Assembly (NCBI GenBank): GCA_016208765.1
Contig: JACQXK010000038.1
Span: forward strand, 14,955-78,954
DNA from: Candidatus Omnitrophota bacterium
GTDB taxonomy: Bacteria > Omnitrophota > Gorgyraeia > Gygaellales > Profunditerraquicolaceae
Length of the DNA: 64,000 bases
Direction of reading: 5' to 3'
The notes under the pieces are model-generated. The model was not told the origin of the DNA, searched no databases, and was given only the letters and a program-made list of their open reading frames with translations. The first letter of the stretch is position 1; the number at the start of each line of letters is the position of its first letter. Below are positions 3,001 through 43,860 of the stretch, in pieces. Position numbers and translations under genes: made by a program.

Positions 3001-6000
3001 ATGCGCAAGCGGGCCGGCACTCTTATTTTCTATGTGGCGCAGGTCGGAAAGGATATAGGCATTGTAAAAACCATTTTTCCCATCACCAAAGAAACGAGTA
3101 AAAAGCCTTAATAACTCTGCAGCTTTTTTATTCTCTCCGGCAAATGTCAGGGCATCAATCAGCACTGCAAAATCATACAGGTATGTTTTGCCGAATTCCG
3201 CCGGGTCGTCTGCAAATGAAACAGGCATTAACTCAAGAAATGCCTTGCGCTGCGCGTCATATCTGGAAATCTTCAGGTATTTCTCGTATTTGGCTGTTTT
3301 CTTCTTAAGTTCAAACTCGCCTTTTTCAACGCGGATATAAGAAGCTTTTCTGGCAATTGTGGTTTCTAAGCCCCTGATTTGCTCTAATACCTGTTCCTTT
3401 GCTGCTTCAAAAGCGCGGAAAGCCTTAATATAATCCCAAAAACCATTATATTTTTTGTCCCATGACTTCGGGCTTTTTAACAGATGGACCCTTGCCTTTA
3501 AAGCTTCAAGGTCTGTTGAGATTGTTTGTAATGGAATCAGGAGATCGTCTGCTTTCTTGGTAAGATCAAGCTCTCTTGGGATCCTGCGCCCTAAAGCAGC
3601 TAATGCCTGCGGCACGCTTCCTAAATCCCTGATACCTGAATAATCAAGAGGCTTATAAGGCGCTGGTTTTGGCTTTGGCGTAACTGCCGGTTCTGGGGAA
3701 GCTTTAGCGCCTGTTGTTGGCCCGGATTTAACAGCTTGGTCTGCTGGTTGAGGCTGAGCTGTCTGCGCAGGAGCTGCTGTCCTTGCTGATACAGGTATTT
3801 TAATTTGCCTTTCCGGGAATATACGATTAGGATTCGCTCCAATTACGCCCTTATTATAATCATACAAATCCTGCCACTTGATCCCATATCTTATGGCGAT
3901 TTTGGAAACAGTATCACCGGATTTAATTGTATAGATAATATCTGCGGGTGCGGCTGGTGCTTGACGAGGAACAGCTACTGGGTCAGGCCTTCTTGCTACC
4001 GGAGCAGGCGCAGGAACTGCCGCGGGAACTGCTGCGGCAAAAGCCTCGGTGGCGCCTAAAGAATTGAGGAATAATGCTGAAGCTAAAACAACTGCTTTAG
4101 CTTTCTGTCCAAAGGTATTGTTGGCTTGTTTTGCAGGTGGAGCGCGCGACATAGTGGTTTCTACCGGAACCTGTCCTGGAACTTTTACACCTTTATTTAT
4201 TACAACCTGGGCTGGAGCCTTAGGCGCAGCAACAATTTGCCTGTCTTGCGCCTTTGTGCCCTGCTCTTCTTGCTGCCTGATCTGATCGCGAATGTCAATG
4301 CTGTTTGCAGGCTCAGTTACAGGCACTGCAGGTTTCTTATCCTTAAGCTCTGCTAATTCATCATAAGCCTGCTGCAAAGCTGTTTCTCTGAACATCTCCG
4401 CTTCCTGCCCAGATACTCCGCCAAAACCCTGCGCGCTTAATTCTGCCATAAATTCTTCTGTAGTTGCTCTTTCCAATCTATAAACTTTTCTCTGCGCCAA
4501 AAACAACTCTAATGCATGCTTTTGTTTTCTTAACCCTTCAAGCTTAACTGCGCCTTTTTCATTATTTATTTCCAGCTCTAATAAAGCAATCCTGCGGCTG
4601 AGCTGATTATCTTCTGATTTTTCTTTTGCGCTATTATTCTCCCTGAGAACCTCATCCTGCAAGTCCAGATCTACAATGCGCGCCAAGATCATAAATCTCT
4701 CTTTTTGCACATCGTCTGCCTGGGCCAAAGCCTTAAATTTATACTCAACGCTCATAAGCATAAGCCGGCGCGCTCTTTCACTTATCCCCTCCTGAGCTTT
4801 AACTGCTCTCACAGAAAATGCATGACGGATATTTAATAAATTTTTAGAATCTTTACCCACCATGCCAAAACCAGAAATTATCTCATCTAAATTCGCGCTT
4901 CTTAACAGCCTTCTTAAATCATCTGCGGAATTAATACGCACGCGATAAACCCTATCAATTACCCTGATAATATTCGCCCGGCGAGAATGAGAGAAAATTC
5001 TGTCAAAATTAAACCTGCCTTTAAAAGACTCTAATAACTTAGCTGTTTCATTCCTGTCTAATTCTTTACTAAGAGGTTTTCTTCCCACATACAAAGCGTG
5101 GAAATCATCCAGATTTAAACCGCCGGGTAAAATATGGCCGTCTTTATTTTTTAATATTTGGCCATTCTGATACAAAGGATAAAAATTATACGCAGTAGCA
5201 AATATGCCGGGCTCTTTATTGCCGCTAACCAAAGAATATGCAAATTCTGTCAAATCTGCTCCGACAAACTGATTCACCGAATTTAAAGCGTGGCTGCCCC
5301 AGCTAATTGCGCCATTCTCGCCTTCAAGGCTTCTGCCGATAATATCCAGCTCCGTGCCGCCGAAATGCTTTAACACCGGATGTTCTGCCAAGAACCCGCC
5401 TGACGCAATTACAGCATTAATTTCTGCGCCAATGGTCCACATATAAAGCATGCTGGAGAAAAATTCCCCTGATAAGCTTACCCACAAATTCTTATAAGGA
5501 TCAGCAAAGAAAGCTTTTTTACGAATAGATTGGGCAACATACAACCCCAAACCTAATAATCCAAGCGGCAACAATACCGGGAATTTTAACATTAATACAA
5601 TCGGCGTAACTACTGCCAAGATAACTGCCAAAGCAACTATATCAGCCTTAAGATAAAGCCATTGCCTGCTGGAAATCCTGGCTACTTTTTTACCCAGCCC
5701 GTTCATTACTACCTTCTCAAATAAACTATTTCCCATTGCGCCCCGGGAAATTATATACTCTAGATCGGCCTTAGCCTTTTCACGTACCTGTTCTTTATCG
5801 CTGTTTAATGCCTGGTAATAACTCATCACATTAATGCTTCTTCCAAGCCAAAACTCAATAATCCTGTTACGGATATGTCCTAAATTAATTACCTTGAGCC
5901 CAAAAACAATGGCAAGAGTACCGAAAATATCTCCCGTATGATAACTTAAATGCAAGGCGCTAAGATACGGCTCAAGGAATTTGATTCCGTAAACTGCAGG

Positions 6001-9000
6001 CAATGAATTAATTACTGCATCACCCAGGATAACCGGTGCAAAAATATGTCCTAACAAAGAACTCAACAATATCAATTGTAACCTGCCAAAGAAGAACATT
6101 GTAGTTGCAGACAAAACAGGGAAAGCAACGTTTAACCTGACAAAGAAAAATGCAATATGTAATACGGCCTTGGCCGGCCAACTCAAGTTTGCATATTCAG
6201 CAGCCAATTTCTTTTCAAGATTATTAATAAATTCGGTTTGCGCTGCCTCAAGCTGGTTGTCATGATGCTTAAAAATTAAACCTGTTCTTTCCGCGTTATA
6301 CAACGCGCGGTCAAAAAAGAAGTTGCGTAAAACATTCCAAAGATAAGGCATGGTATACCCCAGCACAGCCGCGATGATGATAAGTTTTACGCTGGCTATT
6401 CCTGAGGTTAATACCACTGCCAAAGATAAACCGATATAAGCTGCGCGGGTCTTTAATGTAAAATGGCGGATACTAAACAGGTCGCGGAAAGAGTGCCTTT
6501 CACCTAAGGTCTTCTGAGTGTGGACAGCCTGATGTGCCAAGCGTAAAGCAATAAGCCTGGTTAATAGCATGCCGAATGCAAGTTTTAGAAATTTAACACC
6601 GCTATACTCTACACCGTGCTTGGTTAAGAAACTTGCAGTTAAAAGCATGCTTATGCCAAGCATAATAACTACTGAAGGCAGTAATTTGGCAAGTAAACCA
6701 GCGCTGATGATTAACGGTGTAATCTTGAGCCCGCCGATAATAAGCAAGGTACCGGCTGCCACATACAATGCCGCAGGCATGGCTTTTTTAAGTGCGGCGG
6801 CAGGAGTGATCTGGGTTTGCGGATTTAGCCGGATATTTTTGCGCGCAGTAAAAGAAGCATACAACAATCCAAAAGAGGCTGCCGATAAGACAACCGGCAA
6901 TAGCGGCAAAAATCCTTTTATGTTGACAAGCAAACCAAACAGAATAATTATAGTTGCAACTGATGCGATCTTTACCGTTTTAACAACTAAATTTCTGACA
7001 CTACTGGACGAACAAATAGTAACCAAACTCCCCACCGGCCCTGCGCGGATAAGGCCCTTGTTTGCAACATCGCTAAGATATTTTCCTGCTCCAAAATTAT
7101 TAAATAACGCCGATGAGCTCTTTGCCGCTTCCTGTGAAGCAATCGCCCCAACCACAGCGCCCACGGGTGAAGACGTGCCCGTCTTTGTCACCATCAGCGC
7201 TCCAACCGGAGAAGAAGACTTAACTATTGCATCAAATGGTTTAGAAAATACATTGCCATTTTTAGAGAAATTAAATGCTTTAAAGAATGCCCCGTCACCA
7301 ATCCTTGGATCCACTACGATGCTTACAGTAGGATTAAAATCTGTGCCATGATATTTTGCTATTTCTTTTTCTTGTTTCCAATCAACTAATATCAAGCTCA
7401 GGAATTTCAGTAATAAAATCGGAGAAAGATACTCATTACGCCTGCTATTTATAACTCCGAAGCAAAAAACAACTATATTATTATTGTTTTCGTCATATCT
7501 ATACACAACGGCTCCTATAGGATGGTCGCCATTGGATTCCTTCTTTCCAAAATCTCTTTCATGCGCAAAGAATACCTTTAATCCGCGCTTAGCCAATACA
7601 GCATGGATATAACTCCTCTCATATCCGATATCTAACAGGATTTTGAATAATACACTGTCTTCTACTATCTTAATATCTCTCTCTCCGGATATGCCATATG
7701 AGCCGCTATATTCTTTTAGCAGCATATGTGCGGAAAATATAGAAGTAAGGACTAAACCGGGTATCTCCACCATATCCCGATATTTATTTTCAAATTCCGC
7801 AACAGCATACCGCATTGTTTCTCCTGCTGTTCCAACAGTATTTCTTGCTTCATTATCTCCATCTATGGTATCAACGAAATTCAAGATGTACTTAACCTGG
7901 TTTTTGAGAAAATTCAGCCTTGGCAAAAGTATCTCTTTTTTAATCTCATCCCATGTGTTATCAGTTAATTTCACCGAAGCTGGAGCACCGGTGATATTCT
8001 TGATAGATTCAACAAATAGAACAGGATCCGGATCAAGATTAGAAGCAATTTCAGCAACAGAAGGTTGTTCCATGCTTAAAACCTCTTCAATAAATTTAAG
8101 CATACTCTGACACCCATCTATTATTTCGCTCTTTATCACATCGGGAGAAGCCAGATACGAAGCATAAGCCGGATCTTGCATAAGTTTAATATTACCAACA
8201 ATCGGCCCTATGGAATTGCCCATAAAATGGTTCAATGTCTTAAAAAATGCCCTAAACAATTCGCTCCAGCCCATCTCAACAACAGCCGAACTGGCTTGCG
8301 TGGTGTTAATTGCCACTACCGCCCCTACTGCAGATGAAGCGGTGACGGCTTTTTTCATCAGGTCAATTATAAAGGCTTCATTATCAGCAAATCTCTTTGT
8401 GAACATCTCAATAAACAAAATGCCTCTTTCTCTGAAAGTAGTCTGTTCCGGATCAACATTCTGATCCCTGGTAATAACCATTATGTAATCTTTCATAAAC
8501 TCCCGGACTACTTCTTCGGCTTTTCTTAGGTTGCGCCCGCGTAAAGTTTCTAAATTCAACAAGAATGTTCCTTTTATATCAATTAAAAGTTCGTTATTAT
8601 CCCTATGGGCCTTAACAAAGTTTGCACCAGCATTAATACTTGCTAACACAAACTCCATTTTCCCGATTTCGCTCTCTATCCAAGCAAAGGCCTCTTTTCT
8701 TTTCTCCGGCTCTGATACTTTTTTAAGACGATATAAAGCCCCATTGATCACGAACATCGCGGCGTTAAGGTCATACTCAGAAATCTTGGTTATTGTCTGG
8801 CACAACATACCAAAAATATCCTGCGCGTCTGTTTTTGTTCTCTTGCGTCCGCCCTCTATACTCTTGCTGAACCCTATGATCAGTTGCTCCAACGCGGTTA
8901 AACCCTTCTTATTATTTTTCTTATATTTAGACAAAGCATCCTTAAATTTATCAAGGGTAACGGTAAATTCGCTCAGGAACACTTTGATCATTTCTTTTGA

Positions 9001-12000
9001 TTCCTCTGAAACGGGCAATTCTCTTGTAACTTCGTCAACACTGGAAGAGGCAACCACCACAGCTCCTACGTTATTGGTTAACGCAGAAGAAGCATGCCCG
9101 GCGGTAACAGCTTCAATAGCCTGATTCCTTAAATTGTTTCTCTGTTTTTTAGTTGCGTTGATAAACCGGGCGTCAAACATCCTTTCAAATAACTCATTAA
9201 GGAATTTCTTTGTTATCTTTGCTCCGGTTTCTCGGGCTAACTTTACAACCTCTTCAAATTCATCTACAAACACATTAAACAACTCTACAACGCCGTCTGA
9301 TTCCTTAAACAATGTGTCACTTAAATCAATTACCGCGCTTGATGAGCCTTCTGTCCTTGCCACAGCTCCGAGATCATTATTCAGGGCGCTTGAGGCCGCT
9401 TTACCGGAGACAGGAGACAGGTGACTGGTGACTGGTGACACGTGACCGGCGACACGATTAGAGCGGCCTTTCTGCGTTGATCTTGTAGACCGGGATCTTG
9501 CCGCGGCAGGCAATGATGAGTCGTTTAAGGACCATATCACGGTCATTATCTGTGAGTATTTCCCAGGAATCTGCCCGGCCATTACGGCTATAGACATTAC
9601 CCGTGCGGTCGTTAATAAGGAAAAGCCGCAAATGACTGTTGTCTCTACCCGCGGCAAAGATAGTTGAGTCTTTAGTGAATTCCACCATGTGGTCAAAATC
9701 AATTTCTGAATAGTTAGGTCTACACATTTTGCACCTCCTGTTAATTTAAAATATGTGGTTAAATTTGATTGTGGCTCTACTGCCACGCTATAGTTTAATA
9801 TTTTAGTAACTGCGTTGGATGCAGATTTAGTTGTCACGCAGGCGCCGAAGGAGGTCAGTCCTTGGAGGGAGGCCTTCTGGCGGCCTGCGTAAACAACAAT
9901 AGCCTTAACTATCGTTCCTGCCACGGAAGGGATAGAATAAGGCTTGGTTAAATTTGTAATCGGGCTGGAAGTTGAACGAGAACGATTTCTTCTAACTGGC
10001 TTTTGATTTCTTAATAAACCCTGCAAACCAACATCTCTTTTACCCATGCTTTCTTTAGGCTCGGCAGTCCAGCGATTATAAAGAACCAAAAGTAACGTGC
10101 CTGCTGCATATGCCAAAATATCATATGGATCATAGGTAAGATTTTTCCAATAAAAGGCGTGAATAAAATTACGGGTAGATTCGTATTTAGTGAGAATCTC
10201 CTGCGCGCTAAGCAAGCTGAAGAAAACCGCCGCCGCAATATTTGCTCCTATAACGCTAATTTGGGTGATCGGTTTAGCCGCCAAACCATTTTCTAACTCG
10301 CTGTTATTTTCTTTAATATACCTTGATAACTCCACAAGCCCCAAAGCAAAACCCATATAAACTGACACATCAAGGAAATTATAGAACCAATTGTGGAAAA
10401 ACCAGTTAAGATTGGCAAAATTAAAAGCAAAATTAAATATTACTATGCTGGATGATAAAGCCGCAAAACGCATATTCTTCCTGATAAAACCATAGAAAGC
10501 TGCGGCAGAGAAACTCACACAGGTTAACGTCCAGAGAATTCCTGATAATGAAAAATCAGCAACAAAAATACTGGAAAGCCCTGAAGAAGCAGTTGTTTTA
10601 GTTGTCACGCAGGCGCCGAAGGAGGTCAGTCCTTGGAGGGAGGCCTTCTGGCGGCCTGCGTAAACAACAATAGCCTCATCTACCATTCCTGCCACGGAAG
10701 GAGTAAAATGAGGCTCGTTAGAAATAAAAGCCGAAATAATCTCTTTTAAATAGTATTTTAATAATTGGTAAATAGAAGACAGGGAAACAGAACTTGAACC
10801 AATCCTGACAACTGCTCCATAATTTACAGGTATTGCGGATGATACAGTTTGATTTAATGGATAATCTGCGGGCGGACCACGGGCACCATACTTTTCAACG
10901 AGAATTTGATTTCTTGTATGAATAGATGAAGACGCACTTTCTCCGATTAACGGAAGTTTATCATCTTCTCGCCTTAAACCAATAATTGCACTACTGGAAC
11001 CTCTGGATTTACCTACAGTTCTTGCTACTGCGCCAACATTTGCTGCAACAGGTAAGCCTGTTTCATTGCTCCTGCTTTCAGCTGCACCTCTGGCACCTAC
11101 GATTGCACCTACTGCACTGCTACCAACTAAAGCTCCTAATTTTCTGCCCGCTTGTCTGTTACCACGACCTGACATTGGGCTAATGCCAGTCGCCACGTTG
11201 ACACCGCCAGCTTGGCCAAACAGCTGCGTACCCGCGACTGTTGACATTATTGCTGACGAAGATACTACCAGTCCTTCCGTGGCGGGTTTAATTACTAAAG
11301 GTAAAGCCGGTGATGATCCAAGCATTTCCGCAAAAGTTCCTAATCCTCCCACTACCGCCCCAATGCTTGTCGGAACAGGCACTCGTGCCGGCGCAACTGG
11401 CAGATTTGCCGGTAATTGATTTTCTGCAGGGCTTTGAACTGGAGAAGAAGCCTGATCCAAAACAGCATCCACATCAATAACTTCTCGCGCAAGATAGCCA
11501 TCAGTAAAAGCAACTATGCGTAGAGGTAACTTAGGGTTATTATTATTGAATAAAGACAGGTCTAAAGACATTCTGCCTTCTAAATCAGACGCAGATTCAA
11601 ATATCATTTCAAGAACTTCTTTTTTCTCATTTTCCGAAGAACCGTTAAACAACTCCACATAACTTTGCAATCCGAATGCAGCGCTATACGAATCAAATGC
11701 GCTAAATTGTCTGCCGCCTTCTCTGCCATAATTATCACCGCTAGTCTTAAAGCTCAATCCTATTATAGCTAAAACAGGATCTGCATCTTTCTTCGCGATA
11801 GCTTCATTAATCCATTTCATCACTTCATTAGAGACGCTATCTAAAACACCTGCTAATTCACGTATTTTATCAACCGAAGCGCCCTCTGCCATCGCCTTAC
11901 CTATATTAGCCCTTGCCTCAACCAACTGCTCTTTTATCGCGGCAAATTTGGCAATTTCTGTTCTATGCTCTGGGGCAAGTTCAATAAACCTCTGGCCGTT

Positions 12001-15000
12001 CTCCACAACCACCGGCGACGCTGCAGCATTACCCTGCCTCTTCGCCGCTACCATTGCCTGGGCAAGGCTAGCGATAGCCTTAACTTCTTCATTTTCAACC
12101 AAAACACTACTGGCTGAAACATCTACCACAACAGGCTGTCTTGATTGTTGCGCCAATGTTTGCCAAGCCAAAGAAGCAACAGGTTTGCTGGAAAATTCTC
12201 CAGCAAAATAAGTTCTTCTGACGGCCGGATCTCGAAAAGAAAAATGTTGTTTATACTCAAGTTCTGAAGCTCTTGAGCTATAAAGAGGGTTGATTTTCTC
12301 AAAACGACGAGCTGATAATAATTCCCCTGCTTTAGAATAATAATCTATTCCATAGCTATACAAAAATTTGTTTATAAGCTTTACTTCAAACTTATTCCCG
12401 CCAGCTACCACTAGTGCACCTTCAGGTTTTAATGCTTGAGTCATTGCCCAAATAGCTGTTTTTTGTTGTTCTGGTTCCCAGTAGTGTCCAAGCACGTTAG
12501 CAGTTAAAATTAAATCTACACCATCTCTCAATGCTCTTATTCCTCTACCAGCAAAACTTCTAACATCAGGGAAAAGAAGAAAATTATCATTAATCCCAAA
12601 ATCCATTCTTATCCCAACAGGAACTTCTTCTCTTTCCAATCTATCCCGAGCCGATACAAGATGTTTAACAGTATTATCCACACCAATCAGGTCAACATTA
12701 CGATATCCAGCGTCAGATAAAACACGCGCAAATTCAAACACAGTCGGTGCTCCGCTATGGCCAATACCCAAATCAACAATTGTCAAATGCTGTTCAGGAG
12801 CCTTACCGGCGCTCTGTAAATATCCAACTACATCCTGATGCACTAGTCCAAGCCGGCCCGGATAAGTTACACTCTGTGTACGCTTGTTAAGAGTAAACCT
12901 TGTAGCTTGAGCAGTTGGCGAGGAAACTATTGCTGAAGAGGCACTGGCTTTTTTCTGAATATCCACAGCTACTGGCACAGCTTTAACTACTGCATGGTCA
13001 ACTTTAATAGTTCTTACTATATGATTATTTTCACCCCTTACAACAAGGTTGGATGGGTTGCCAACCTTCACAACTTCGCTTACTGCCTTAGGAGAAGCGC
13101 TTTTAACATTATCTGCTAGCGCTCCGGTAACAAGGCCAAATTTTACCCCGCCCGAAATTAAAGCAGCCACTACCACAGGAATAAGGAACTTCACCGGATT
13201 AAATTTAATCTTACCAACGGCATCGCGAGAAATCATTTCATCAACTGTTTCAGAAATAACACCACCGCTATCAATTCCTGACTTAGCGGGCCTTTCCAGA
13301 GTATGCCCTTGAACAATATCAAAAGCGTCAAACCCGATACCAATAACGTTTGCCCAACGAGCAAGTCCTTTTTCCTTAACAACAGAATAACTTGCTCCAG
13401 CAATCTGCATGGCGTTTCCTACCTGACTCACTGCTCCACCGAAGAAAACATCAAGCGGAGTGCCAAGAGTAATCGCCAACTGCGATAACCAAGCGCCTTT
13501 TGAGCTGTTATTTCCAGAAACTAAATCTATAGTTCTTACTGCAGTTCCCAAGCCGGCAACTGTTGTTAATAAACCACCCTGTACATACGAGAGAATTTCA
13601 ATAGATGGAGCATGATCAATAGCAAACATACTACCTAATACACCGACGGAAGTTAAAGATAAACCTGCAGCAGTCCATCTTAATCCCTTACGCAAATCAT
13701 TAGAATTAATTGCTGAAGAAGACTGGTTAATTATATTTCTTGGAGAGACATAAGCGGCAACAATAGATGTTACAACTGGTGTTGCAATAGGAGCCGATAA
13801 AACAACTTCTTTTTTACCAGTAAGTGCTGTTAATACAGCTGAGGAAACGATAATTTTCTTATCTACGGCCTGATTATTTTCTGGAGGCTGAACAAAGAAT
13901 GCTGCGCGTTTTAACAAATTAATTAAGCTTGAATCTTTAACCTCTTGCAGAGATCTTATTAATGGCACCAAAGGAGCATTGTCTTTTTGCTTGGTAAATT
14001 GGGTTGCTTTAACAACTGCCGGGCTGGCCTTAACAACTCTTTCTATCTGCTGATTTTCGTCATTTAAAATAAAGTTTGAAGGTCTGCTCACCTGCACAAC
14101 CCTGCTTACTGCTTTTGGAGTAGCACCAGAAACATTATTTGCCAATGTTCCGGTAACAGGACTTAATTTTACTCCACCAAAAATTATTACTGCTAATGCC
14201 AAAGGAATAAATAACTTTGCCAGATAAGACTTCATTCTTCCAACAGATGAAAAAGTTGCTCTTTGTGCGCTTGCAGGAGTTACTGATGGGATTACCACAG
14301 GGGTTACTACTGGAACAGTAATTGCTTGTTCCGGCGGGCTGCGTCCGCGGGAAGCTTCTATTGCTGCGCTAACTACCTTTTGTGCTTCAGGAATTCCCAC
14401 TTTGTCGGTGGCTGATAAAGGCACATCGGAAGACGCATTTTCTTTTGAATCAGAAAGCGCCGCTAATACAGATGAGGAAGCGATAATCTTTTTATCTTTA
14501 GCACTCTCTACTTCCGGAGGAAGGCCATAAACTGGCTTGCGTTTTAAATTCATAATAATAGGAGAACTTGTATCATCATCTTCCTCTGGCTGCTGGCCAT
14601 TAGTTTGAGCTGTTGGCGTAACAAACTTAATCTTATTTCCATTGGTACACTGCACAAAATCAATAATATAATCCATTGCTTCACCAGTATTTTCCATTTC
14701 AAGCATTCTTTCAGATAAGCTTAATAATGAATTCCCTCCCTGATTAATGGTTCGCTGGATTAAATCCTGAATATTATAGCTTCCCGGGCAGAATTTAGCT
14801 AAGTGCAAATTTTTATCTTGATCTAAAAAGTGCAATAAATCAACCATGCTATAATATTGAACCAAAGCTTCATTTAAACCCCACTCTGTAATACCTAAAT
14901 CTACACGTTGAAATTCTTCATTATCTAACCCCAATCTATTCTGAAATTGGTTTAAAAAGCCTTCGTATTGTAATCTGGTATTATTATCTATTATACGCCT

Positions 15001-18000
15001 CGTATCGTGCTGCACATAATCAATTACACTGTGATGCAACTCATGAGCTCCTCCGCCAACGTTATACTCGCCTACAACATTAGTCGTAACAGAAAGTCTT
15101 CCTCCTGAGGAAACCTTATAATTAAAATTCATTGCAGCATCAAGTCTAAAATCGCCAGTTTCCTTATCCACCTGTGCCGGGGTAACCGCATTAGTTTCTT
15201 CATTTCTGATACTATTTGCCGGCATCAAGTTTACCCTGCCTCTTTTACCCCTCATTGCTGCCTGCCACATTCCAACCCCCCATCTTTCATCAACTGCCGC
15301 CTGACCTCTTGCTATCAGAATCTCTGCTTTTCTCTGAAGAGATGGACGCATTGCCGCTGAAACTTCTTCTGGAGTAGAGGTAAAAAGTGCTAAACCGCGG
15401 ACATTATTTAAAGCTGCTCGATACTGAGTTATCATATCATTTAATGCTGCTTGTCTTGTTTGAACCATTTCTGTAGTTAATGCAATAGGTCTCCCATTTC
15501 GTAACCGATTTTCCGATCCCCTAGCATTAGAACCTTCTGTCAACCTCTTGTTTAGAACATTTTTTGCATTTTCAGCGTTGTATATTTTCTTCTTTAAATA
15601 ATCAATCGCTTGTCCCCTGCTAAACACATTCACCCTGCCTGCCATTCCATTAGGCGAAAGTATTTCCTGCAAAATTTCGCTTAATTGCGATGCTTTAGAT
15701 GGGGATAAAAATGCCCCAAATGGCAAGAAATTTAAAGCCGCCTGAATAAACTGTTCAGTTACTGTCTCTTCAACAGTTCCAGTTACCACCATGCTATAAA
15801 GCCGCTGCCCAATAATCTTTCCTGCTCCCAAAGAGCTTTCTCTTGGAGAAGATTTTAACAACATCCCGGCACCCAAAGTTTCTTCTACTCCTTTACCTAT
15901 TGCCTGAAATTTATATCCGAAGTTGCGCCACTTAATCGCCCCAAAAGCTGATTCTGCAAAAGGCTGTAACCCCGCTAAAGTTGCCGAGAAAATTAAATTA
16001 GTTCTATCTACCTTCTTAAAGAAACCGCTTAGTGTCTTTGGTGCCTGGTCAAATGAATCTACTTTTATATCACCAATCTTCTTCTTATTATCTTGAATAT
16101 TGTCACCCTCTGCGTAAGAACCAAATAACCCGGCAAAATATGCTCTCTCAGCAATCCTACCAGCAACCCTTAGCTTGCTTTCGAAACTCCCTGCTTTATC
16201 AAACGCACCCAACAAAACTGCATATTTATCTCTGCTTGCCGGGCCTTTGCCCTGTTTTGATTCTTCAGGCGTAATCCAGAAAGCTCCGTAAGTAAAATTC
16301 AACAGCGATTTTTCCCAATCTCCATATGCTGCAGGAGAAATGTATGTTTTAGTAAAAGCTGATAAAGACTCCACTACTCCTTGTAACGGAGCAATTACAG
16401 TAAACAAATTAATCATCGTTCCTCTTAAAGCAAAATCCCAAGCTATACCTTTAGTTCCTGCTAAACTAAGTCCGGCCACTTGCCGCGAAGTTTTATCAAG
16501 AAATGAATCCCTTAATCCCGGTATACGGGAAGCTACAGATGCAACCAAATTAACTGTTCCTAGCCATTTCATACCAGTACCAATTCGCCCAACAATTAAT
16601 CCTAAATCCGCTCCATTTTCACCAATTGTTGCACCTTTTAAACCGAATGTACCCTCTACAGCCCCCCAATGCTCTAATCCATAACCTGCGCCAATCATAA
16701 GGGTAGAAGAAATTATCGGATGCTCTACACCAAATAAATGTATATCACTTAATTTAAATTTACCAACCTTAGAAACAAAATAAAGAGCCGGCAAAATCAT
16801 CATTGCCTTGCCAATATTTTCCCCATATTTTGTACCAGAGAAGCCGTATGTCGCTAAACCAGTCAATGCTGTAGCAACAGGAATAACAAATTGCGGGCTA
16901 CTAACAGATTTCCAGAAAGTTGTGGCTCCGGCATTAACTCCTCCTACCGCGCTACTGGCATGTCCTTCTCCCGGAGGAACGCCGCCTTTTCTCCTCGAAC
17001 TAAATACCCAATCCCACATTTTTTCCCCGCCATTAATTACATTTTCTCTAATACCTTTTGCTGCGCCGCGTCCAAAACCTATCTGAGGCTCTAACGGGCC
17101 TTTAATATAAGTTTCGCGCGCAATAAGGCCAATTTTAGTTGCACCCAGCATATTAGCGCCTAAAAATAAAGCGTAGCGCCAATGATTCAACTTACCAGCT
17201 TCTTTATATTTATATGGGTAAACTTCTAATTTCTTACCATCTCTTTCTACCAATACTTTCTCTTTTGTTGTATCTAACTTTTTCTGGCCATATTCATCTT
17301 CCTCAATCATAAAAACTTTCTGCTCTTCAAAAAGATACGGCCGGGTTGCCTCAGCAAAGTCAGGTTTTCTTTTCTGTGGATCAAGCTTCCAAGCCCATTC
17401 CTCAAGCTTGCCATCAACCATTTTCTTTGTTCCATAAAATAGCGCAGCACCAGAAGCTAAATTGCCAGCTAATAATCCTGCTTGGCCAGCTAATCTTAAT
17501 ATTGGGAATACATTGCGCAAACCAACTCCAAATGCTGCACCAGCAATAACATCTGTTTTCCAACCATCGCCAAACAATTCTCCTGTAAGTTTATAATTCG
17601 CATAAATTCCACTTGCTACACCAAGAGATATATAAGGAGCATAATATGCTACACTGTGACCTAAAGCCTTCCATCCTTCTAATCCATTAGCCACAGTACC
17701 AAAATATTTTGCTTCAGTCCTCCCCAACAACGACCTCTCTAAAGCAGATTCAGTGGTACCAGGAAGACGTTCCTTCCTAGCAACAAAAGCTCTTGAGCTC
17801 AACACACCAGACAAACTTTTCATCATTAATAATCCACCGATACCAGCAAGCACTAATCCGGCGTCTGCCACATAATTCCATGACTCTGAGGGCTTATCTT
17901 TAGGACTATTACTCATTCCCCATCTATATAAACCATATCCTCCGACAATCATCCCAACTGAAGTACCAATAGCCCAGCCTCTTCTGCTGTTATATTTCGC

Positions 18001-27545: not shown

Positions 27546-30500
27546 TTAAAATTCTTCACGGGTTTCTCCTGAAGTTGAGAAAGTAACAGACTTATTTGTT
27601 TCAGTTGAGCTGCTTAAATCAGGATCATTGGATGGCTTTGCTTTAATATAATCCCACCTATAACCAACAGTGTCATCTCCCATTAAAGGCTTAACAAAAG
27701 CCTGCGGCATACCGTTAGCATTCCATGCCGGAGGCAGCATAATTGAAGCACGGCCTTCATAGGCAGCTCCAAGAGTAAGATCCTCAGGATTATCCTGCAC
27801 CAAAGTAATACCATTGCCCATATCCACCAGTTGGATCTTAAGTAATCCATCTCGTGCCTCTTCCAAGCTGATAATAGATTGTGCGGGATCCTGCCAGCGG
27901 CCCAATTCTTCACTAAGTTTCTTTATTTCTTCCTGCACTTCCTTTAATTTCTTTTCAGCTTCTTTTTTCTGCTGGCTATCATCACTCATCGCTTCCAAAC
28001 CTTTATTAATATTTTCTTCTTGTAGAACTAACTCTTCAACACTGCTTTTCTTATCCCTCAGATAATTTATGTCTTGAGTATAAATATTATATGCTGTGCG
28101 AATATTTGCCTCAATAGAATCTCTATTGTACGCTCCGTTACGGGGCAGGGTAAATGCCGGCGCCAACTGCAGATTATTTTCTGCCCGATAACCGGAAGTA
28201 ACGCCCCATTGCAATAACGGCGCATTTTCTTCGGTATTAAAACGGGTATACTTATAAACACCCGACTGCCAAACCACATTTGCCGGAGCGCTAAGCTGCC
28301 CTATCTGTTTCACATATTCAGTCCTCTCAAATAATTCTCCCGAGGTATGCTTATCTGCCTTGGCTCTTTCAGCATTGAACCTGTCAAACACAACGCGCTT
28401 TGTAAGCGGCAGATCTTTCTGCTCTTGGGCATCATCACCTTGGATAGCCTCAAACTGTTTAAAGTCAAATACAACACTCTGCGCAATTTGCCATATCTGG
28501 TCGGTTAAGCTGCTTGGAATTGCTGAATCAAATTGAGGTTTATTGCCACCGGCGTAAGCCGCATTCAATGCCTCTTCAAACATACGCTTCCCCTTGTCTC
28601 TTAAAAATGCTGCTTCTCTGCCTGTGTTTAAATACATATAAGGCTGCAGTGCCGGGCCTGAGCGGGTTTCAGAAAGGCGCCATGAGTAAGACGGATTTCC
28701 ATAAGGGCTGTGCCCTTGGCCGATAGAATAGAAGTTATAATTGTAGTCTGTATTTGCCCCGACGGAAACTGGAGCGTAGCCAGATGGCTGTATTTCAACT
28801 GTAGGAACAACTTCCGGCTTCTTAGGCTCCGGATCCCTCATCATTACCTCAAGGCTGCGCGGCAACCATATCACGCTGGCAGCAAGCATGTTAGCAACAT
28901 GGTGGCGAGGAGCTTTGTCTGGATCATAATCCTGGATAACCGCAGTTGTTGCAGCATCTCTTTTCATATTATTGCTCGGATAATCTGAATTGGATTGCAT
29001 ATTCCAATCTTCTAAGACAGTTGCCCAGCCAACAAATTTAACGGTAAATCTTTCTTTGTCTTTAGCAGACATTTCATTCCAAGCATCATGATTATTGGCA
29101 ATATACCACAAAAGCATTGTATTATGCGAAGTTGGCTTGTCGCTCTTAAACCCGCGTCCAACCCTTCCTTGTTTTTTATACCAACGCCTCACAATGCCAT
29201 CAAGTTCTTTCACCAAATCCGGATTATCAGCAAACAATTTCTCTGCATCCCGGTAAGAAACTTTCACCACTTCCACATCTTTGTTTTCAACTGCAGCTAT
29301 AAGCCTTTTTGTGGCCACAGCTTTAGCGGCCCTTTGCACCGGATCATCCCTGCTAAACAGCTGTTCCGTCGCTGTAGGCAGTTTTGGAAAACGAATAACT
29401 ACCCGAGCCTCAACAGGAACAGGGCTCTGCCCTTGAGGAGCAGCTGCTTGATCTTGCTTGCCAACTACGCTTTGCTCTTGCACATACTCCGGAGGAGTAA
29501 TCGCGGTGTAATCCGTTGTCCTGGTCAATGCAGAACCAAACGGGCCGTAATAATATTCGGTTGTCTTGGGCAATTGCACCAAATTCCAATTACCATTGGC
29601 AAAATCCTGGCCATCCTCACTAACAAAATCCTGCCCGAAATATTCTGTGCTTCTTGCCCTGCCCCATAAATCAACTCTGGTGCGCGATAAAAGGCTGGTA
29701 ACCGGCGAGAAAAATACCGGCCGCGCAGAAGAAAATTTGCGGATAATTTCTTTTTTATCTTCAAGTGACAAAGCCAATAATTTTTCTTTTTCGGCATTAA
29801 ATTCCTGCACTGCTTTTTCATCCTGAGCATCAGGCAATTGCATACGTTTTACAAATTTATCAAACTGCTCTTGCATAAACTGATCCTGAGTAACAAGGTC
29901 ACTCTTTTGAGCCTTAAGCATATCTTGTGTCAACGCCTGCATTACCGGCTGGGCGATAACAGAACGCCCATAGGTCAACTGATCCAGAGGCAATCCGCCG
30001 GCAACTGACAAAGAATAAGTGCTGTTTACTACTCCGTCGCCAATATTAGGTAAAGATAAATATTTACCCAAAATACCTCTTTCCTGCGGCTTAAGCATTG
30101 TTGAACTGCTGGCGCTAAAATGCCGCATAAATAATGCTTCATTAGTATTTAGGGATGCGTCCATACCTGCGGCCTCATCTCTGCGCTGGTAATGATAAAT
30201 ACCGCCGATTTGCCCATGGCCAAGGCTTGAATCATACACGGAATATTCCATTTGCCTTGCCTCTGCCATCTGCCTTGCCACAGGCAGAGCTTGCTGCATC
30301 CAATTATCTTCACCTTCTCCGCCTTTCTTGCTAAAGAAATAAACCGACTTATCTCTAAGCGCCCAACCTTGAGTAATTTCTGCAGTAGTAACAGGAGCAG
30401 AATCAGGTAACTTAGCGCTATACACAGGTGTTAACCCTTGTGCCGCAACCACCCACTGGAATATTTCCTGGCGCGGAATTGATAAATCTTGAAGTTGTCT

Positions 30501-33500
30501 ATTTATTTCTGGTAAAGGCGCTTTTATTGCATCCATTTCATCTCTCAATCCATTAATGCGTGTCTCCTGGATACTAACAAAATCCTTAACCTTACCTTCA
30601 AAAACACTGATTTCTTCTGCACCAAGCGCATCACGATTCATAGATTGTCCAGCAAGCTTATTAATATTTTCTACTTGCTCTTCTTCCCCAGCAAAAACAC
30701 CAAACTGAGCATTTGTGGCAACCACAAGCGAAATTGTATTAACATCCGGATTTAAACCTTGCTCTTTTGCCTTCTGCAAATCTTGATATGCTGCGTAAAT
30801 CGGATCTGCTTCCAGCTCTTTTTTCTTTTTCTCTTTTTTATTCACTTGCTCTGCAATTTCAGTTTTCTTTACTTCTAAGCCAACTATTTGCTCAGCTGTA
30901 TCAGGCTTATATCTCTTCGCAGTATCAATAAATCTTTCTGCCTGCTCTCTTAAGGCCTTTCTTCTTTGCGTTTCCTCTTTTACTAACTCGCTTGTAGGCT
31001 TAAAACTTGCGTAGGTGCGGGAAGAGCGAGGCAATATTGGATTTGTAAAAACAGCAGAAACAGATGAAGCCAGCCTTGAATTTGCCTGCTGGCTCAATGA
31101 TTCAAGCATTAATGCCCTATTAGCTTGTAACGGGCTGTAACCCTTTGCCCGCATTTTCATATATTCAATAAAACGATCCTGCTCATTAAATCTTGCCTGC
31201 AAACCATTCATTCCGTTAATCGGCGTCCTTAAATTAACCGGGAACAATGTGGCATTAACCGTTGACAGGAATAAATTATCCCCTATATTTTCCAAGGTAG
31301 CAGGAATAAACCTGCCCAACACATCACGCATGCTGAAATTAATTCTTCCTTTGCTGATTGGATCCTCGCCCAGAGAAGGCATTCTCCTGGTTTCTCCGGA
31401 GTAATCAAACCCAGCTATATTTAATCCATAAACAGTCCTGGTAATTTCGCGTGTGCGCACGCGGAAATCCTCCGGAGCAAGCTCTACTTCTTTTCTTTCT
31501 TTGGAAGATAAAACAATTATACCGGTTTCTTTCTTACCAACAACAACACCTTTCTCATTTACTACATCCATTATCTTACGGGTATCTTGTGCTACCGAAT
31601 ACACCGTAGTAGTATCTGCATCCAATTCAAATTCTCCGGTGGATTCACTTCTTGCTGTCCCGCCTTGCGCTCTTATCTGGCTGACTGAAGCATAATGCAC
31701 ATCGCCAGTGGCAGACTTTAAAGAAATAAGCGGATCAGCGGTATTTTCTGTCCAAAATTTAGTCCCGTTAATCTCATATCCGGGGAGAGTAATCATTTTT
31801 AATGGAGAACGCTGAGACGGGCCGGCAAAAATAAATTCACCTTCTCCTAAAATATTATACACATCAACTATCTCAGTTTTCTGAACCGATTTGTTAAATT
31901 CTTCTCCGCTCATCTCTAAAATATTGCCATCGGTAGAGATAAAAGTGTGTTCCGGAGAAGCATTGCCTTCTTGGTCAGTAGCTCTAATATAAGTCCGTCC
32001 ATCTCCGGCAAACCGATAGTATTCTACGCTCCGTCTTGGACCCGACTGGGCAATCGCAGCCCACTGCTCTGAAGAAACTTCTTTATTTTGTCCATCACCT
32101 AATGAATGCAAAATAACACCAGCTGGCTTAGCCTGCTGGCTAAATTTCTCCGGCGTCATAAAAGTCCTCTGGCCACCTGGAGTTGATGCTCCCAAAAGCA
32201 CTCCAGTAACTGTACTCACGCCCTTTAATGCCTGTCCACTGCCATATTGGACAACATTTGCGGATAAATCTTCCAACGACACTGAGATCTTCTTTTTAGT
32301 CGTTCCTTCGCTTTCCAATTCAACACTATTGCTATCCTGGCTATAGCCAACAATATGATAATATTGTATCTCACCTGAACCAGAACTAAGGCCTACTCGC
32401 ATAGGAGCATTATTTGATGCTGAAGTTTCTGATGATTTCTGCTGCAAACTTACCGCCAACTCTCTGCCGAAGTCATTTTGAAATTCATCCATTGTCTTAA
32501 GTTTTTCACTGCCGGCAACTATGATCGGCTGTTGATCACTTTTTTTCTCGTCTTTGTTTTCTTCCGGTTTATTCGCCACAAAATCAACAACCATTATATT
32601 TCCAGTAGCTATTACTTGGCTGATATTACCATCTCTGACATAAACCTGAATATCTGTTTTCTTTGCTCCTTGCTTTTCTTTTACCTCATCCAATGTTTCA
32701 GAAGAAAAATCTATATACTGGCCATCGGGGGCATGAGCCCTTGTTATATCTTTTGCCGGTGCGCGCAAGACCAAAGCATCAACCACTGAACCAGCCACTA
32801 CACCACTGGCAAGATGTAATAATTCCTGCAATGCCTGCGGTTGGCGAATTTCATTCACCCGGCAATACTGCCCCCAGGCAATTTGCAAGCCGGCATCCAC
32901 AGCATTATCAATTAGCGACTTTGCTATATATTTAGAAAGAGATAAACTTCCTCTTGTTCGCCAATAATTATCCTGGACTTTATTACCTGTTTTATCATCT
33001 GTCCAAGTCGTTCCGGAATACCATGTGTTTAAAACATCTATATTAGAAAACACACCGCTAGAAAAACCGGCAATTGCTCCAGCACCTACGCGCTTAACCA
33101 AATTATCAAAAATCTTATCATCATCGTCGCCGTAATGAGTCTTATACCCCATTGCTGATAAGACTGCAAGCTTAACCCCCAAATTAACAAAGGGTGCCAG
33201 CCCCATATTCTGCACCGCCTTAAAAGACTGATTCAATATGCCAAAATCACTCATTGTGTTTCCTTGCACATCAGTCATCAATCCACCGGTTGCATTTAAC
33301 AAAGCAGCTGTGTTAACATGCGCTTGTGTTAATAAATTCAACGTACTCAGTTGTGCCTGAGCAAGCTCTCTTCCTGAAACCTGGAGCAAAACATTTTCCT
33401 TTTCACCTGTTGGAATAATAAGAATTACTTTTTCGGCAGATTGTAAAATACCAGCGAGCGCTTTATTTTGCGCAACATCAGAAAGGGCGATACTCCCAGC

Positions 33501-35045: not shown

Positions 35046-35087
35046 ATTTTTAAGTGGCAAATACTTTTTGAAACTGTTTAGGATTTA

Positions 35088-35628: not shown

Positions 35629-36135
35629 TTATTTAGCTCTAAAACTGGTGATTATTTTATTAAAGATAGGCTCATATTTCTTATCCTTACCTACCTCATA
35701 AGCATAGGTTAAGACATAAAAATACTTTCCCTTGCGGAAAACAACGCTGGTCATTCTTAAAGTAAATTCTTTTATCTTGGTGACAAATGAAAATTTCTTA
35801 CCTGGCAAAAAACCTGCGAATGCGCTTCCTTCCTGTTGATCATACGCTCCCGGCAAATTGCGTAAAAGTTCTTCACGATTTAACTCGTAAAATGTCCCCA
35901 AAGAAACCTGTTCCGGCAATTCTGTTACTACCACGTTAATATTTTCCGGATACACATCCCCTTTACCTTCAAGCGGCGCCTTGGCAATCAAAGCCACCTT
36001 ATCCATTCCTTCTTTACTCCAGGAATTTGGCAGTAGTAAAGAAAATTTATATTCTTCATTACTATATTTCTGCCAGAATAAATTACACCCTGCCAGAAAA
36101 AATGTGATCAAAAATATAATAAATAACTTACGCAT
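35629..36135 (-). CDS. Lipoprotein, unknown function (about 168 aa; lipobox FFLAGC)
   Basis: Track ORF 35629..36174. The internal ATG at 36135 gives MRKLFIIFLITFFLAGC. The N-terminal extension in the track overlaps a degenerate repeat copy. Confidence 0.7.
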   Translation of the reverse strand: MRKLFIIFLITFFLAGCNLFWQKYSNEEYKFSLLLPNSWSKEGMDKVALIAKAPLEGKGDVYPENINVVVTELPEQVSLGTFYELNREELLRNLPGAYDQQEGSAFAGFLPGKKFSFVTKIKEFTLRMTSVVFRKGKYFYVLTYAYEVGKDKKYEPIFNKIITSFRAK

Positions 36136-36143
36136 AGTATTGC

Positions 36144-36180
36144 GTCGTCCCCGCGCAAGCGGGGATCCAGGCATAATGAC
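36144..36180. repeat. Degenerate half-copy of the palindromic repeat family (reverse orientation)
   Basis: gtcgtccccgcgcaagcggggatccaggcataatgac versus the reverse complement of gtcattcccgcgaaagcgggaatccagc. Confidence 0.5.
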
Positions 36181-36186
36181 ATTTGT

Positions 36187-37074
36187 TTAGAACGCCCCCT
36201 TGGGAATTAATTCCCCCTCGGTAAATTTAATAATGATCGGCCCGGCAACCACAATCATAACCGCCGGCAAAATACAAAAAATCAAAGGAAAAAGTATTTT
36301 TAGGGATGCCTTGATTGCGTATCTTTCACCAGCCTCAAAACGCATAGTGCGCGTATCTTCAGAAAGGTTCTTAAATGTTTCCTCAATGGGAGTACCCATT
36401 CTTTCAGACTGCACTACCGAGCGCACAAAACTATTTACCTCGGGGATATTTAATCTTCTTGCCATATCCTTTAATGCCTCAGCGCGGGTTTTACCCACCT
36501 GGACCTCGCTTAACACCACGCCAAGCTGTTCAATAAAGGGATTATATTTACTTTTCTCAACCACCCATTTTATAGCCGAGAGAAAATCAGCTCCGGCGCT
36601 CACACACATATCCAAAAGGTCAATCGTCTCCGGGAAAATACGCACAATATCCTGTTTTTTCTTTTTGAATTTATTAAGCATGATCGCATCCGGCACAAAA
36701 AAACCAAAGAAAACCCCCAATAAGCCGTACAACACAGAAATAAACGTAGTGGCAATAACACCGCAAAGGATCGCTAATGCCAATTTAAAAAAAACTAATG
36801 CATACACGTTCATATCAATACGCAAAACCTCAGACTGCTGTTTTAATTTTTTAATGTACTGCAGATGAGAAAGCGGCTCAATAATAAAGTTAAGCGGCTT
36901 TAAGAAATTATCAAGCGAACCAGCCATGCTAAACGGCTTCTTCATGGCAGCTGCCATAGAATTCGGCTCGGTAATAAAATATGTGCGGCGCCTGCCCATA
37001 CCGGAAACAATGGATATAAGCAGGTAAAAAACTATAGCCAAAACCATAAAAATCACCACTAAATATATTGTCAT
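36187..37074 (-). CDS. tadC: Tad pilus inner-membrane platform protein TadC (GspF/T2SSF family)
   Basis: 295 aa, polytopic, T2SSF-like. Adjacent to tadB. Confidence 0.75.
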   Translation of the reverse strand: MTIYLVVIFMVLAIVFYLLISIVSGMGRRRTYFITEPNSMAAAMKKPFSMAGSLDNFLKPLNFIIEPLSHLQYIKKLKQQSEVLRIDMNVYALVFFKLALAILCGVIATTFISVLYGLLGVFFGFFVPDAIMLNKFKKKKQDIVRIFPETIDLLDMCVSAGADFLSAIKWVVEKSKYNPFIEQLGVVLSEVQVGKTRAEALKDMARRLNIPEVNSFVRSVVQSERMGTPIEETFKNLSEDTRTMRFEAGERYAIKASLKILFPLIFCILPAVMIVVAGPIIIKFTEGELIPKGAF

Positions 37075-37135
37075 ATCCTTCTTTCTATTGATCCTTAAGT
37101 CGGCCGAAGGCCTCCTTCAGATGACGGTAGCGCAA

Positions 37136-37993: not shown

Positions 37994-38002
37994 AACTATA
38001 GT

Positions 38003-38203
38003 TTATTCGTTTCCGACCTGCGAGTCAACTGTTGTTTTTTCCGGCTCATAAACTTCTCCCTGCCCGAAGGTATCGGCAGTATCGCGGATCTTTGAGGTAA
38101 GGGCGTTCTTGATATATTGCCCCATAATGATAATTGCCGCGATAATTACCGCGAAGACAACGGCAAACTCAATAATGGACTGGGCTTTATTTTTCCTGGA
38201 CAT
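38003..38203 (-). CDS. flp: Flp-family type IVb pilin (flp7), about 66 aa
   Basis: ATG at 38203 preceded by AGGTG. MSRKNKAQSIIEFAVVFAVIIAAIII carries the Flp motif (G/A)QS(I/V)(I/V)E(Y/F) plus a hydrophobic helix. The track ORF is extended N-terminally. Confidence 0.75.
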   Translation of the reverse strand: MSRKNKAQSIIEFAVVFAVIIAAIIIMGQYIKNALTSKIRDTADTFGQGEVYEPEKTTVDSQVGNE

Positions 38204-40293: not shown

Positions 40294-40329
40294 TTCAAGA
40301 CCTCTTCTTAGGCACTTAACCTATAGCGC

Positions 40330-42084: not shown

Positions 42085-42110
42085 GAAAACATTATGAACA
42101 TGAAGTTGTT

Positions 42111-42176
42111 GTCATGCCCGCGGACGCGGGCATCCAGACGTTCCAATGGCTGGATTCCCGCATTCGCGGGAATGAC
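42111..42176. repeat. Palindromic intergenic repeat copy D (between the tadE-like gene and the Cys-rich pseudopilin gene)
   Basis: gtcatgcccgcggacgcgggcatccagacgttccaatggctggattcccgcattcgcgggaatgac. Confidence 0.85.
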
Positions 42177-42183
42177 GGTTAAG

Positions 42184-43008: not shown

Positions 43009-43050
43009 TTTAATTTATATCTCTTGCCGGGTCAACTATTATTTAAATAC

Positions 43051-43834: not shown

Positions 43835-43860
43835 AACTCAGCCTCCTGATAAAAACGATA

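Follow-up and report, generated by a model that had tools for sequence, protein, structure and literature searches.

Giant proteins of the Omnitrophota were described by West-Roberts et al. (2023; bioRxiv 10.1101/2023.11.21.568195) as carrying N-terminal C39 peptidases, with S-adenosylmethionine (SAM)-dependent methylases among the domains listed, and their genes as preceded by a locus with gspD, gspE, gspF, rcpC and a peptidyl-prolyl isomerase (PPIase) of the Rotamase_2 type. A second study (bioRxiv 10.64898/2026.06.07.730766) reported PF08241 in 137 long Omnitrophota proteins, grouped it with HATPase_c, GNAT and HAD domains, and argued for a cytoplasmic, membrane-anchored reading of such proteins. 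Here, we analyzed a methyltransferase domain encoded in a stretch of 64,000 nucleotides (nt), hereafter the window, from a Candidatus Omnitrophota bacterium (assembly GCA_016208765.1, contig JACQXK010000038.1, positions 14,955 to 78,954 of the forward strand). The domain lies within a giant open reading frame (ORF), designated A, and the sequence comparisons and structural models presented below identify it as a genuine, divergent class I Rossmann-fold SAM-dependent methyltransferase domain. It adds a new and divergent member to the methyltransferases already known from Omnitrophota giant proteins. The initial annotation of the window had regarded an enzyme domain of this type inside a giant protein as unusual, which does not hold, as methyltransferases were already catalogued in Omnitrophota giants by both studies.

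The locus shares several traits with the described Omnitrophota giants (“Archaeovorin” type). ORF A is a giant ORF with multiple predicted transmembrane segments and an N-terminal C39 peptidase, HEAT repeats are present in the neighboring giant C, the region at 35629-53509 has the same upstream gene set (PPIase of the Rotamase_2 type, RcpC, secretin, GspE and GspF), and a methyltransferase is among the recurrent domains of these proteins. The locus differs in that the window copy of the methyltransferase escapes annotation based on hidden Markov models (HMMs), and in that the 8,943 amino acids (aa) of A within the window, beyond which the C-terminus of A lies, yielded no glycosyltransferase, NUDIX or SecA-like domain. 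The domain at nt 12286-12918 very probably represents a self-contained class I methyltransferase module, about 270 aa in length. The giant protein that houses it would be a multi-pass membrane protein of the multi-enzyme type known from Omnitrophota, and its gene lies downstream of a Tad/type II secretion-like locus.

Methyltransferase domain of the giant ORF A

The features of A that bear on this domain are the following.

1-26829, minus strand: giant ORF A, one open frame of at least 8,943 aa by stop-to-stop scan, with the C-terminus beyond the left edge of the window
12112-12927, minus strand: whole methyltransferase module (A aa 4635-4906) between ASASSAI and SASSVL, consisting of the core and a conserved C-terminal extension of about 60 aa
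12286-12918, minus strand: predicted class I SAM-dependent methyltransferase core (A aa 4638-4848), matched by the family profile in hmmsearch (E = 1.5e-60)
12850-12867, minus strand: N-terminal family signature TYPGRL, with at least 90% conservation of T22 and R26 across the family alignment
12742-12783, minus strand: motif I, beta1 and glycine-rich SAM loop, TIVDLGIGHSGAPT (aa 4683-4696), assigned by alignment conservation and model
12673-12690, minus strand: post-I acidic residue at the end of beta2, LIGVDN, with D85 at least 90% conserved and a predicted strand at residues 79-85
12490-12519, minus strand: motif II, beta4, VDLILTANVL, with N145 invariant, aligned with D-L-I-x-C-R-N-V-x-I-Y-F of CheR
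12400-12429, minus strand: motif III, beta5, KPEGALVVAG, with G171 invariant, aligned with LkPgGvLv of CheR and CmoA

Motif I, an acidic residue ending beta2, motif II and motif III had been placed in canonical order at nt 12400-12900 by the initial annotation, and all of them were found in that order on the minus strand and in a single frame of A, with motifs I to III at aa 4683-4810. In A, motif I reads V-D-L-G-I-G-H-S-G-A-P-T, while the family signature is (V/I)D-x-G-I-G-x-x-G-A-P-T. An alignment of 22 homologues (A1) was the basis of the family profile, the conservation counts and the AlphaFold input. In this alignment, G57 of motif I is invariant and G55, I56, P62, and T63 are conserved in at least 90% of the sequences, a level also reached by G83, D85, and A94. 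In terms of the canonical SAM site, the conserved residues account for its glycine loop, the Asp of beta2, the Asn of beta4, and the Gly of beta5, along with the family-specific T-x-x-G-R-L. In the AlphaFold model, motif I comprises a strand (residues 49-54) followed by a helix (residues 62-73).

An exhaustive HMMER scan of 1.84 billion representative sequences returned 36 matches, about 22 of which are true homologues spanning query residues ~37-205 without interruption (E values from 1e-164 to 1e-4, reaching 1e-25 among distant homologues). The remaining matches, located at query residues 181-234 and including the ~48-aa repeats of P0017 and similar proteins, were rejected as Kelch repeats giving a cumulative spurious match. 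A word-indexed homologue search retrieved two small proteins and no more when the family profile was used, and gave no match with the sequence of the A domain. The motif I signature was also turned by hand into a degenerate DNA pattern, which was run on 185,579 GTDB genomes and on metagenomes. Eight places were matched in the GTDB genomes, seven of them true family members; all seven are in frames open across the whole 8-kb locus, and six of the seven are from metagenome-assembled genomes (MAGs) of Omnitrophota. In the metagenomes, 10 of 16 matches were true, seven of these 10 in ORFs of at least 1,475 aa. Run on raw contigs, the signature (V/I)D-x-G-I-G-x-x-G-A-P-T-x-F retrieves giant genes of the Omnitrophota type with few false matches.

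Comparison of the family profile with the PDB revealed matches to CheR (5ftw, E = 5.5e-9), YecO/CmoA (E = 4-7e-8) and dozens more solved methyltransferases, and it also drew two non-methyltransferase chains (BurrH) on a short stretch of 28 residues. When the family members were searched individually, 20 of the 22 matched Methyltransf_25, the best single match being to Methyltransf_31 (E = 1.6e-12), and two homologues, P0022 (41.2, 35.3, 32.9, and 28.7 bits) and L013 (28.8 bits), cleared Pfam gathering cut-offs. AlphaFold (AF2) with the alignment predicted a beta-alpha-beta core followed by long C-terminal hairpins, with a predicted local distance difference test score (pLDDT) of 85.2 and a predicted template-modeling score (pTM) of 0.84. 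A Foldseek search of the PDB with this alignment-based model gave 419 chains at E < 1e-3 (best E = 1e-9), and the best 50 are all SAM methyltransferases, including 1wzn, CypM, CcbJ, NmbA, TylM1, GSMT, ToxA, and CmoA. A model predicted from the single sequence (pLDDT 52.7) led Foldseek to TIM-barrel enzymes at template-modeling (TM) scores of about 0.3, and was dropped as a false lead. The family profile, the alignment-based model and Foldseek all pointed to a methyltransferase, and the domain proposed for this region is supported as a predicted Rossmann fold rather than a set of chance motifs.

Selection, placement and rival readings

The closest relative was found on contig JACROO010000117.1 (locus L010, protein P0001), which shows 94% nucleotide identity over exactly 906 nt corresponding to the methyltransferase module; blastn against this contig detected no other similarity. 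The block is 91-97% identical to P0001 at the amino acid level, with upstream homology ending exactly at SSAI. The core domain differs from that of L010 by 23 synonymous and five non-synonymous changes, giving a ratio of non-synonymous to synonymous substitution rates (dN/dS) of 0.057, compared with 0.23 in the flank just downstream. Since A and P0001 are only 37-83% identical, or unalignable, outside the module, the methyltransferase is the best-conserved piece of A, and by these measures its core is under strong purifying selection. The GC content of the module matches that of gene A (0.40 vs. 0.42). In addition, ORF A is collinear with a 7,357-aa homologue, P0007, with the methyltransferase domain at an equivalent position in both. 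Free-standing homologues of 214-250 aa also exist, and the module is therefore self-sufficient.

The contig carrying this nearest relative was deposited as “Nitrospirae bacterium NC_groundwater_1963,” and all other genomic matches are from Omnitrophota. This groundwater MAG may have been given the wrong taxonomic label, or the gene may truly occur outside the Omnitrophota; the window itself carries no phylogenetic marker. A free-standing member of 250 aa (P0034) is encoded at positions 10001-10753 of locus L011 (GCA_030431715.1, JAUIIO010000042.1), beside TadE/Tad-like genes and an unannotated protein of 1,119 aa. No consistent neighborhood was found for the small and mid-size homologues: that of L011 is near Tad genes and the two mid-size ones, L022 and L013, are in unrelated contexts, because of which the Tad link is anecdotal.

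Regarding function, the sequence features suggest that the module binds SAM and would pass a methyl group to some acceptor, and we have good confidence that it is a SAM-binding domain that is probably catalytic. By sequence, the best match is CheR, a protein methyltransferase, and by fold the domain comes closest to N-methyltransferases of small molecules, sugars, and peptides, with neither result being decisive; a small molecule, sugar amine or peptide is suggested as methyl acceptor, rather than nucleic acid, with low confidence. The placement of the module was considered together with the following features of A.

25927-26352, minus strand: N-terminal C39-like (double-glycine) cysteine peptidase, over the Pfam cut-off (Peptidase_C39, E = 1e-8)
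13138-13209, minus strand: hydrophobic segment (aa 4541-4564, Kyte-Doolittle), a possible membrane anchor situated ~75 aa N-terminal of the methyltransferase domain
3793-3933, minus strand: LysM domain (aa 7633-7679; Pfam LysM, E = 4.9e-10)

Candidate ATG starts of ORF A are at 26826, 26802, and 26769. The Peptidase_C39 and LysM domains are the only ones above Pfam threshold in A, and about 15-22 hydrophobic segments were counted by the Kyte-Doolittle scale, a crude method. The C39-like domain spans aa 160-301, with the Pfam match at aa 215-301 and a weak PDB match to 6mpz. Sequence inspection revealed that Cys168 (GKPCGAKAL) and a His (DHFVLV) are retained, and because the catalytic Cys and His are kept, the domain could be an active protease. 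Cys168 is one of just 21 Cys across the 8,943 aa. Since SAM is cytoplasmic, the methyltransferase module is likely to face the cytoplasm, where it would be tethered via the nearby hydrophobic helices, and calling A a surface protein, as had been done initially, is doubtful for its methyltransferase part, as one would expect a domain that depends on SAM to face the cytoplasm. The module would act as an independent enzyme bead, which may stay tethered, or be freed should processing occur at the ASSA[VI] peptides on either side of it. Three plus-strand ORFs of 155-260 aa (6569-7351, 7643-8110, and 8531-9124) face ORF A; they are most probably spurious, being shadows of the long frame on the minus strand.

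Several observations weigh against a catalytic, cytoplasmic methyltransferase. The third Gly of motif I is shifted by one position (G-I-G-x-x-G, not G-x-G-x-G), and is thus a variant. The Pfam search proposed as a check for this domain did match methyltransferase families with the window sequence alone (Methyltransf_25, _12, _31, and _11, and CheR, at E values from 1e-3 to 2e-2), but all were below cut-off, at 16-20 bits vs. cut-offs of 21-30 (20.0 bits for Methyltransf_25, cut-off 27; 19.7 for Methyltransf_12, cut-off 30; 17.5 for Methyltransf_31, cut-off 27). The NCBIfam scan gave CmoA alone, at 1e-3, and the domain's own sequence reaches no cut-off of either Pfam or NCBIfam. Divergent modules such as that of A are overlooked when the domains of giant proteins are surveyed with HMMs, and are recovered by a family profile combined with alignment-based structure prediction. 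The Foldseek TM-scores are just 0.41-0.50, and the periphery of the domain therefore diverges from solved enzymes. No substrate-defining residues or conserved gene neighbors point to the acceptor. Hydrophobicity parity puts the domain in the cytoplasm assuming that the N-terminus is inside and LysM outside, and this holds only without the weak segment at aa 4342-4360. Moreover, most domains of such giants were predicted to be extracellular by West-Roberts et al. (bioRxiv 10.1101/2023.11.21.568195), and extracellular placement would leave a SAM enzyme without its cofactor.

A rival reading is a pseudo-enzyme or SAM sensor, in which the methyltransferase fold, perhaps binding SAM or S-adenosylhomocysteine, would have a structural, regulatory or ligand-sensing role without catalysis. 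Such a role would agree with the absence of assignable catalytic residues, with the divergence of the family and the scores of the window sequence under Pfam cut-offs, and with the co-occurrence of signaling-type domains (HATPase_c in P0006; “Module 1” of bioRxiv 10.64898/2026.06.07.730766), and binding would explain the strong purifying selection equally well. However, we consider it unlikely: all canonical SAM-site elements are kept, T22, R26 and the Y/H-Y after beta4 are conserved outside the cofactor loop, as expected of a substrate site, and the free-standing homologues of 214-250 aa resemble ordinary enzymes.

Another kind of Rossmann-like nucleotide-binding enzyme, NAD/FAD-dependent or of the phosphoribosyltransferase-type fold, that mimics the methyltransferase motifs is very improbable. 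The low-confidence single-sequence AF2 model (pLDDT 52.7), with its similarity to TIM-barrel-like alpha/beta proteins, and the single-sequence phmmer search of the PDB, which gave nothing significant and was topped by hypoxanthine phosphoribosyltransferases at E values of about 0.3, are what speak for it; these E values are above 0.1, and once the family alignment is used, profile and fold searches yield methyltransferases almost exclusively. A chance match of motifs in a long alanine/glycine-rich protein, with no domain at all, is hardly conceivable. Many motif-like short strings are expected in 8,943 aa and Pfam reported no methyltransferase on the full-length halves of A, but the family profile matched one place only in A, at the E value listed above, and chance is refuted by the PDB profile matches (1e-8 to 1e-9), the confident fold of the alignment-based model, Foldseek and the dN/dS of 0.057.

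Delimiter peptides and the giant C

The methyltransferase module of A is flanked by short peptides that recur in A and in the giant C, at the following sites.

12928-12939, minus strand: SSAI delimiter (in ASASSAIVSSP), immediately N-terminal of the methyltransferase module
16945-16956, 13834-13845, 13708-13719, 12928-12939, 11248-11259, 11110-11121, and 10984-10995, minus strand: SSA[IVL] sites 1-7 of A
10831-10842, 9382-9393, 9331-9342, 9079-9090, 8326-8337, 8281-8292, and 7105-7116, minus strand: SSA[IVL] sites 8-14 of A
62766-62777, 62730-62741, 60732-60743, 59934-59945, 58926-58937, 57684-57695, 57039-57050, and 55143-55154, minus strand: SSA[IVL] sites of C

The motif SSA[IVL], mostly as ASSA[VI], occurs in 14 copies in A vs. 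1.3 expected, with a maximum of six in 200 shuffles, and in eight copies in C vs. 0.2 expected; it is absent from ORF B. An origin at the DNA level (repeat or uptake sequence) was ruled out since the codons differ among copies, and the constraint is therefore on the peptide rather than on the DNA. Comparison with P0001 showed that A is without one whole module of ~270 aa (window 12916-12948 vs. P0001 aa 2951 and 3222). In P0001, this extra module lies between two copies of the motif (...KASASSAI-module-QQSSSAI-VSSPT...), while a single copy joins the same flanks in A. In the aligned sequences, the breakpoint falls on SSAI, the mark of a whole module gained or lost at the delimiter.

Other giants bearing this methyltransferase family have recurrent peptides of their own: GARL[SA] occurs 12 times in P0032, GAMHE seven times in P0011 and RSEMR 11 times in P0019, and ASSP[VLI] is present in 10-11 copies each in P0022, P0002, and P0007 and in nine copies in L023. 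A delimiter was found within 60 aa upstream of the domain in eight of 13 instances (2.4 expected) and within 90 aa downstream in 11 of 13 (3.7 expected), counts that are indicative only, since the motifs were picked post hoc and the 13 instances are not all independent. In P0032, motifs at aa 1721 and 1927 exactly bracket the domain (aa 1722-1917), and in P0022 the GNAT, methyltransferase and Metallophos domains each lie in their own ASSPV-delimited segment. The delimiter motifs are clearly module junctions. They are possibly also processing sites, linkers, modification sites or secretion signals being the alternatives. Neither bioRxiv 10.1101/2023.11.21.568195 nor bioRxiv 10.64898/2026.06.07.730766 mentions these motifs, and the former states that the cleavage points of Omnitrophota giants are unknown.

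A speculative extension, to which we give rather less than even credence, is that these giants are bacterial “polyproteins,” in which autonomous enzyme modules are separated by lineage-specific delimiters that would serve both as sites for a co-evolving protease and as junctions of module gain, loss and exchange. The delimiter would be ASSA[VI] here, in the otherwise unrelated A and C, and ASSP[VLI], GARL[SA], GAMHE or RSEMR elsewhere; the N-terminal C39-like domain would be the candidate protease, and processing would free a cytoplasmic methyltransferase of ~30 kDa. If true, this would supply the cleavage points missing in bioRxiv 10.1101/2023.11.21.568195, make whole vs. cleaved action of the giants testable by N-terminomics and explain the evolution of giant genes by cassette exchange. 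Delimiters that are processing or junction sites would also provide a rule for splitting giant ORFs of 10,000-100,000 aa into functional units. The delimiter peptides are unlike the Gly-Gly sites of C39 peptidases.

The other large ORFs of the window and a module of C are located as follows.

27546-35060, minus strand: large ORF B, 2,504 aa, with no Pfam domain and no delimiter motif
54219-63998, minus strand: giant ORF C, ~3,230-3,260 aa, with HEAT repeats, two LysM domains and eight ASSA[VI] motifs
57024-57695, minus strand: module of C (aa 2102-2325) bracketed by ASSAVEDVSS and SSSAVGGS, with the methyltransferase-like motifs SVILNIGSGRNP...VINVDAN, VVVVFYNMWQFM, and GYILFVDF

A weaker methyltransferase-like motif set had been described in C. 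The stretch SVILNIGSGRNPLITKGWRVINVDAN is present as described, at nt 57480-57557, and two delimiter copies flank it; its best Pfam match is Methyltransf_23 at E = 0.024, and no homologues were detected. The case for aa 2102-2325 of C being a second, unrelated class I methyltransferase module is evenly balanced. The motifs V-I-L-N-I-G-S-G (I), V-I-N-V-D (beta2 acid), V-V-V-V-F-Y-N-M (beta4), and G-Y-I-L-F-V-D-F (beta5) are in canonical order, the two best Pfam matches are both methyltransferases (Methyltransf_23, covering profile positions 4-121 of 164, and CMAS, E = 0.13), and the site occupies exactly one ASSAV-to-SSSAV module of ~215 aa, a typical size for a methyltransferase domain. On the other hand, the site is non-significant in a whole-protein Pfam scan, it has no match in NCBIfam, in PDB sequences (phmmer), in the homologue search, in metagenome contigs, in plasmids (tblastn) or among the collected giants (phmmer), hhalign against the A family gave a probability of 0.6%, and, as the sequence reads, the beta2 Asp follows the G-loop at a distance ~4-5 residues shorter than usual.

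The initial annotation had also noted HExxH and LysM in both A and C and had taken A and C as paralogous giants. The shared elements were confirmed, with a Pfam LysM in each protein and exactly one HExxH per giant, HELHH in A (nt 15031-15045) and HELNH in C (nt 58092-58106), mildly above the ~0.05 per protein expected from composition. The paralogy was not: the HExxH contexts of A and C showed no significant similarity (E = 1.7), BLASTP among A, B, and C gave nothing at E ≤ 0.01, and the family HMM with filters off (--max) matched A once and neither B nor C, even when E values up to 100 were admitted. At the level of sequence, A, B, and C are not detectably paralogous, and the LysM in both A and C reflects a shared domain rather than paralogy. 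The HExxH sites are matched by no metalloprotease model and lie outside the regions covered by the homologues found. The last ~136 aa of C (54219-54640, aa ~3121-3256) show homology to the C-terminal ends of two proteins that bear the A-type methyltransferase domain, P0006 (E = 1.7e-26) and P0022 (E = 1e-20). From these alignments, this C-terminal segment is a conserved domain common to C-like giants.

Secretion locus and comparison with known systems

The genes between C and B form the upstream locus introduced above.

35629-53509, minus strand: Tad/type II secretion-like locus, seemingly complete, identified by Pfam

The gene order is a PPIase (Rotamase_2), RcpC/CpaB, a secretin with TonB_C, a ParA-like and T2SSE ATPase fusion, unannotated ORFs, a TadE/G-like protein, two T2SSF proteins, and a PsbP-like lipoprotein. 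No Pfam match was obtained for the ORFs at 38187-39029, 42184-43551, and 45556-47370 and the small ORFs at 43502-45444, and a regular-expression search of the window found no Flp-type pilin. The ATPase fusion protein is 100% identical on short contigs, L001 and L002, of the Logan assemblies of SRR12113402 and SRR12113406, and the same organism is therefore present in both samples.

Among solved structures, CheR (PDB 5ftw and 1af7; PF01739) is the best sequence match of the A family, with which it shares D-L-I-x-x-x-N-V-x-x-Y and L-k-p-G-G-x-L, and the CheR model was matched by 14 of the 22 family members. However, the alignment with the SAM domain of CheR is confined to its C-terminal half (for the window sequence, profile positions 134-179 of 195; 16-17.5 bits, cut-off 27), the PDB alignment begins at beta2, there is no CheR_N match, the N-terminal helical domain and the receptor-binding beta-subdomain were not detected, and the context is not one of chemotaxis. 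An assignment of the A domain as CheR was rejected on the half-length model alignment and the absent accessory domains, and the resemblance is a weak hint towards protein substrates.

With the generic Pfam domains Methyltransf_25, _12, _31, and _11, the A family shares the fold and the order of motif I, post-I acid, motif II and motif III, and some of its members reach the gathering cut-offs. The family differs from them in T-x-x-G-R-L ~25 aa before beta1, G-I-G-x-x-G-A-P-T, G-V-D-N, and (A/S)-N-V-x-x-(H/Y)-Y, in its long C-terminal beta-hairpins and in TM-scores of ~0.45 to solved enzymes. Similar to “Module 1” of bioRxiv 10.64898/2026.06.07.730766, relatives of the A domain adjoin GNAT, HATPase_c, and Metallophos domains.

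The layout of the giants may finally be set beside that of viral polyproteins. Viral and other polyproteins carry protease-specific cleavage-site motifs, whereas in A and C cleavage is only conjectured and the motifs could equally be linkers or modification sites. By analogy, the two nevertheless appear alike in having a single long ORF, with enzyme modules split by a short, recurring, lineage-variable peptide and a protease domain encoded in the same ORF.

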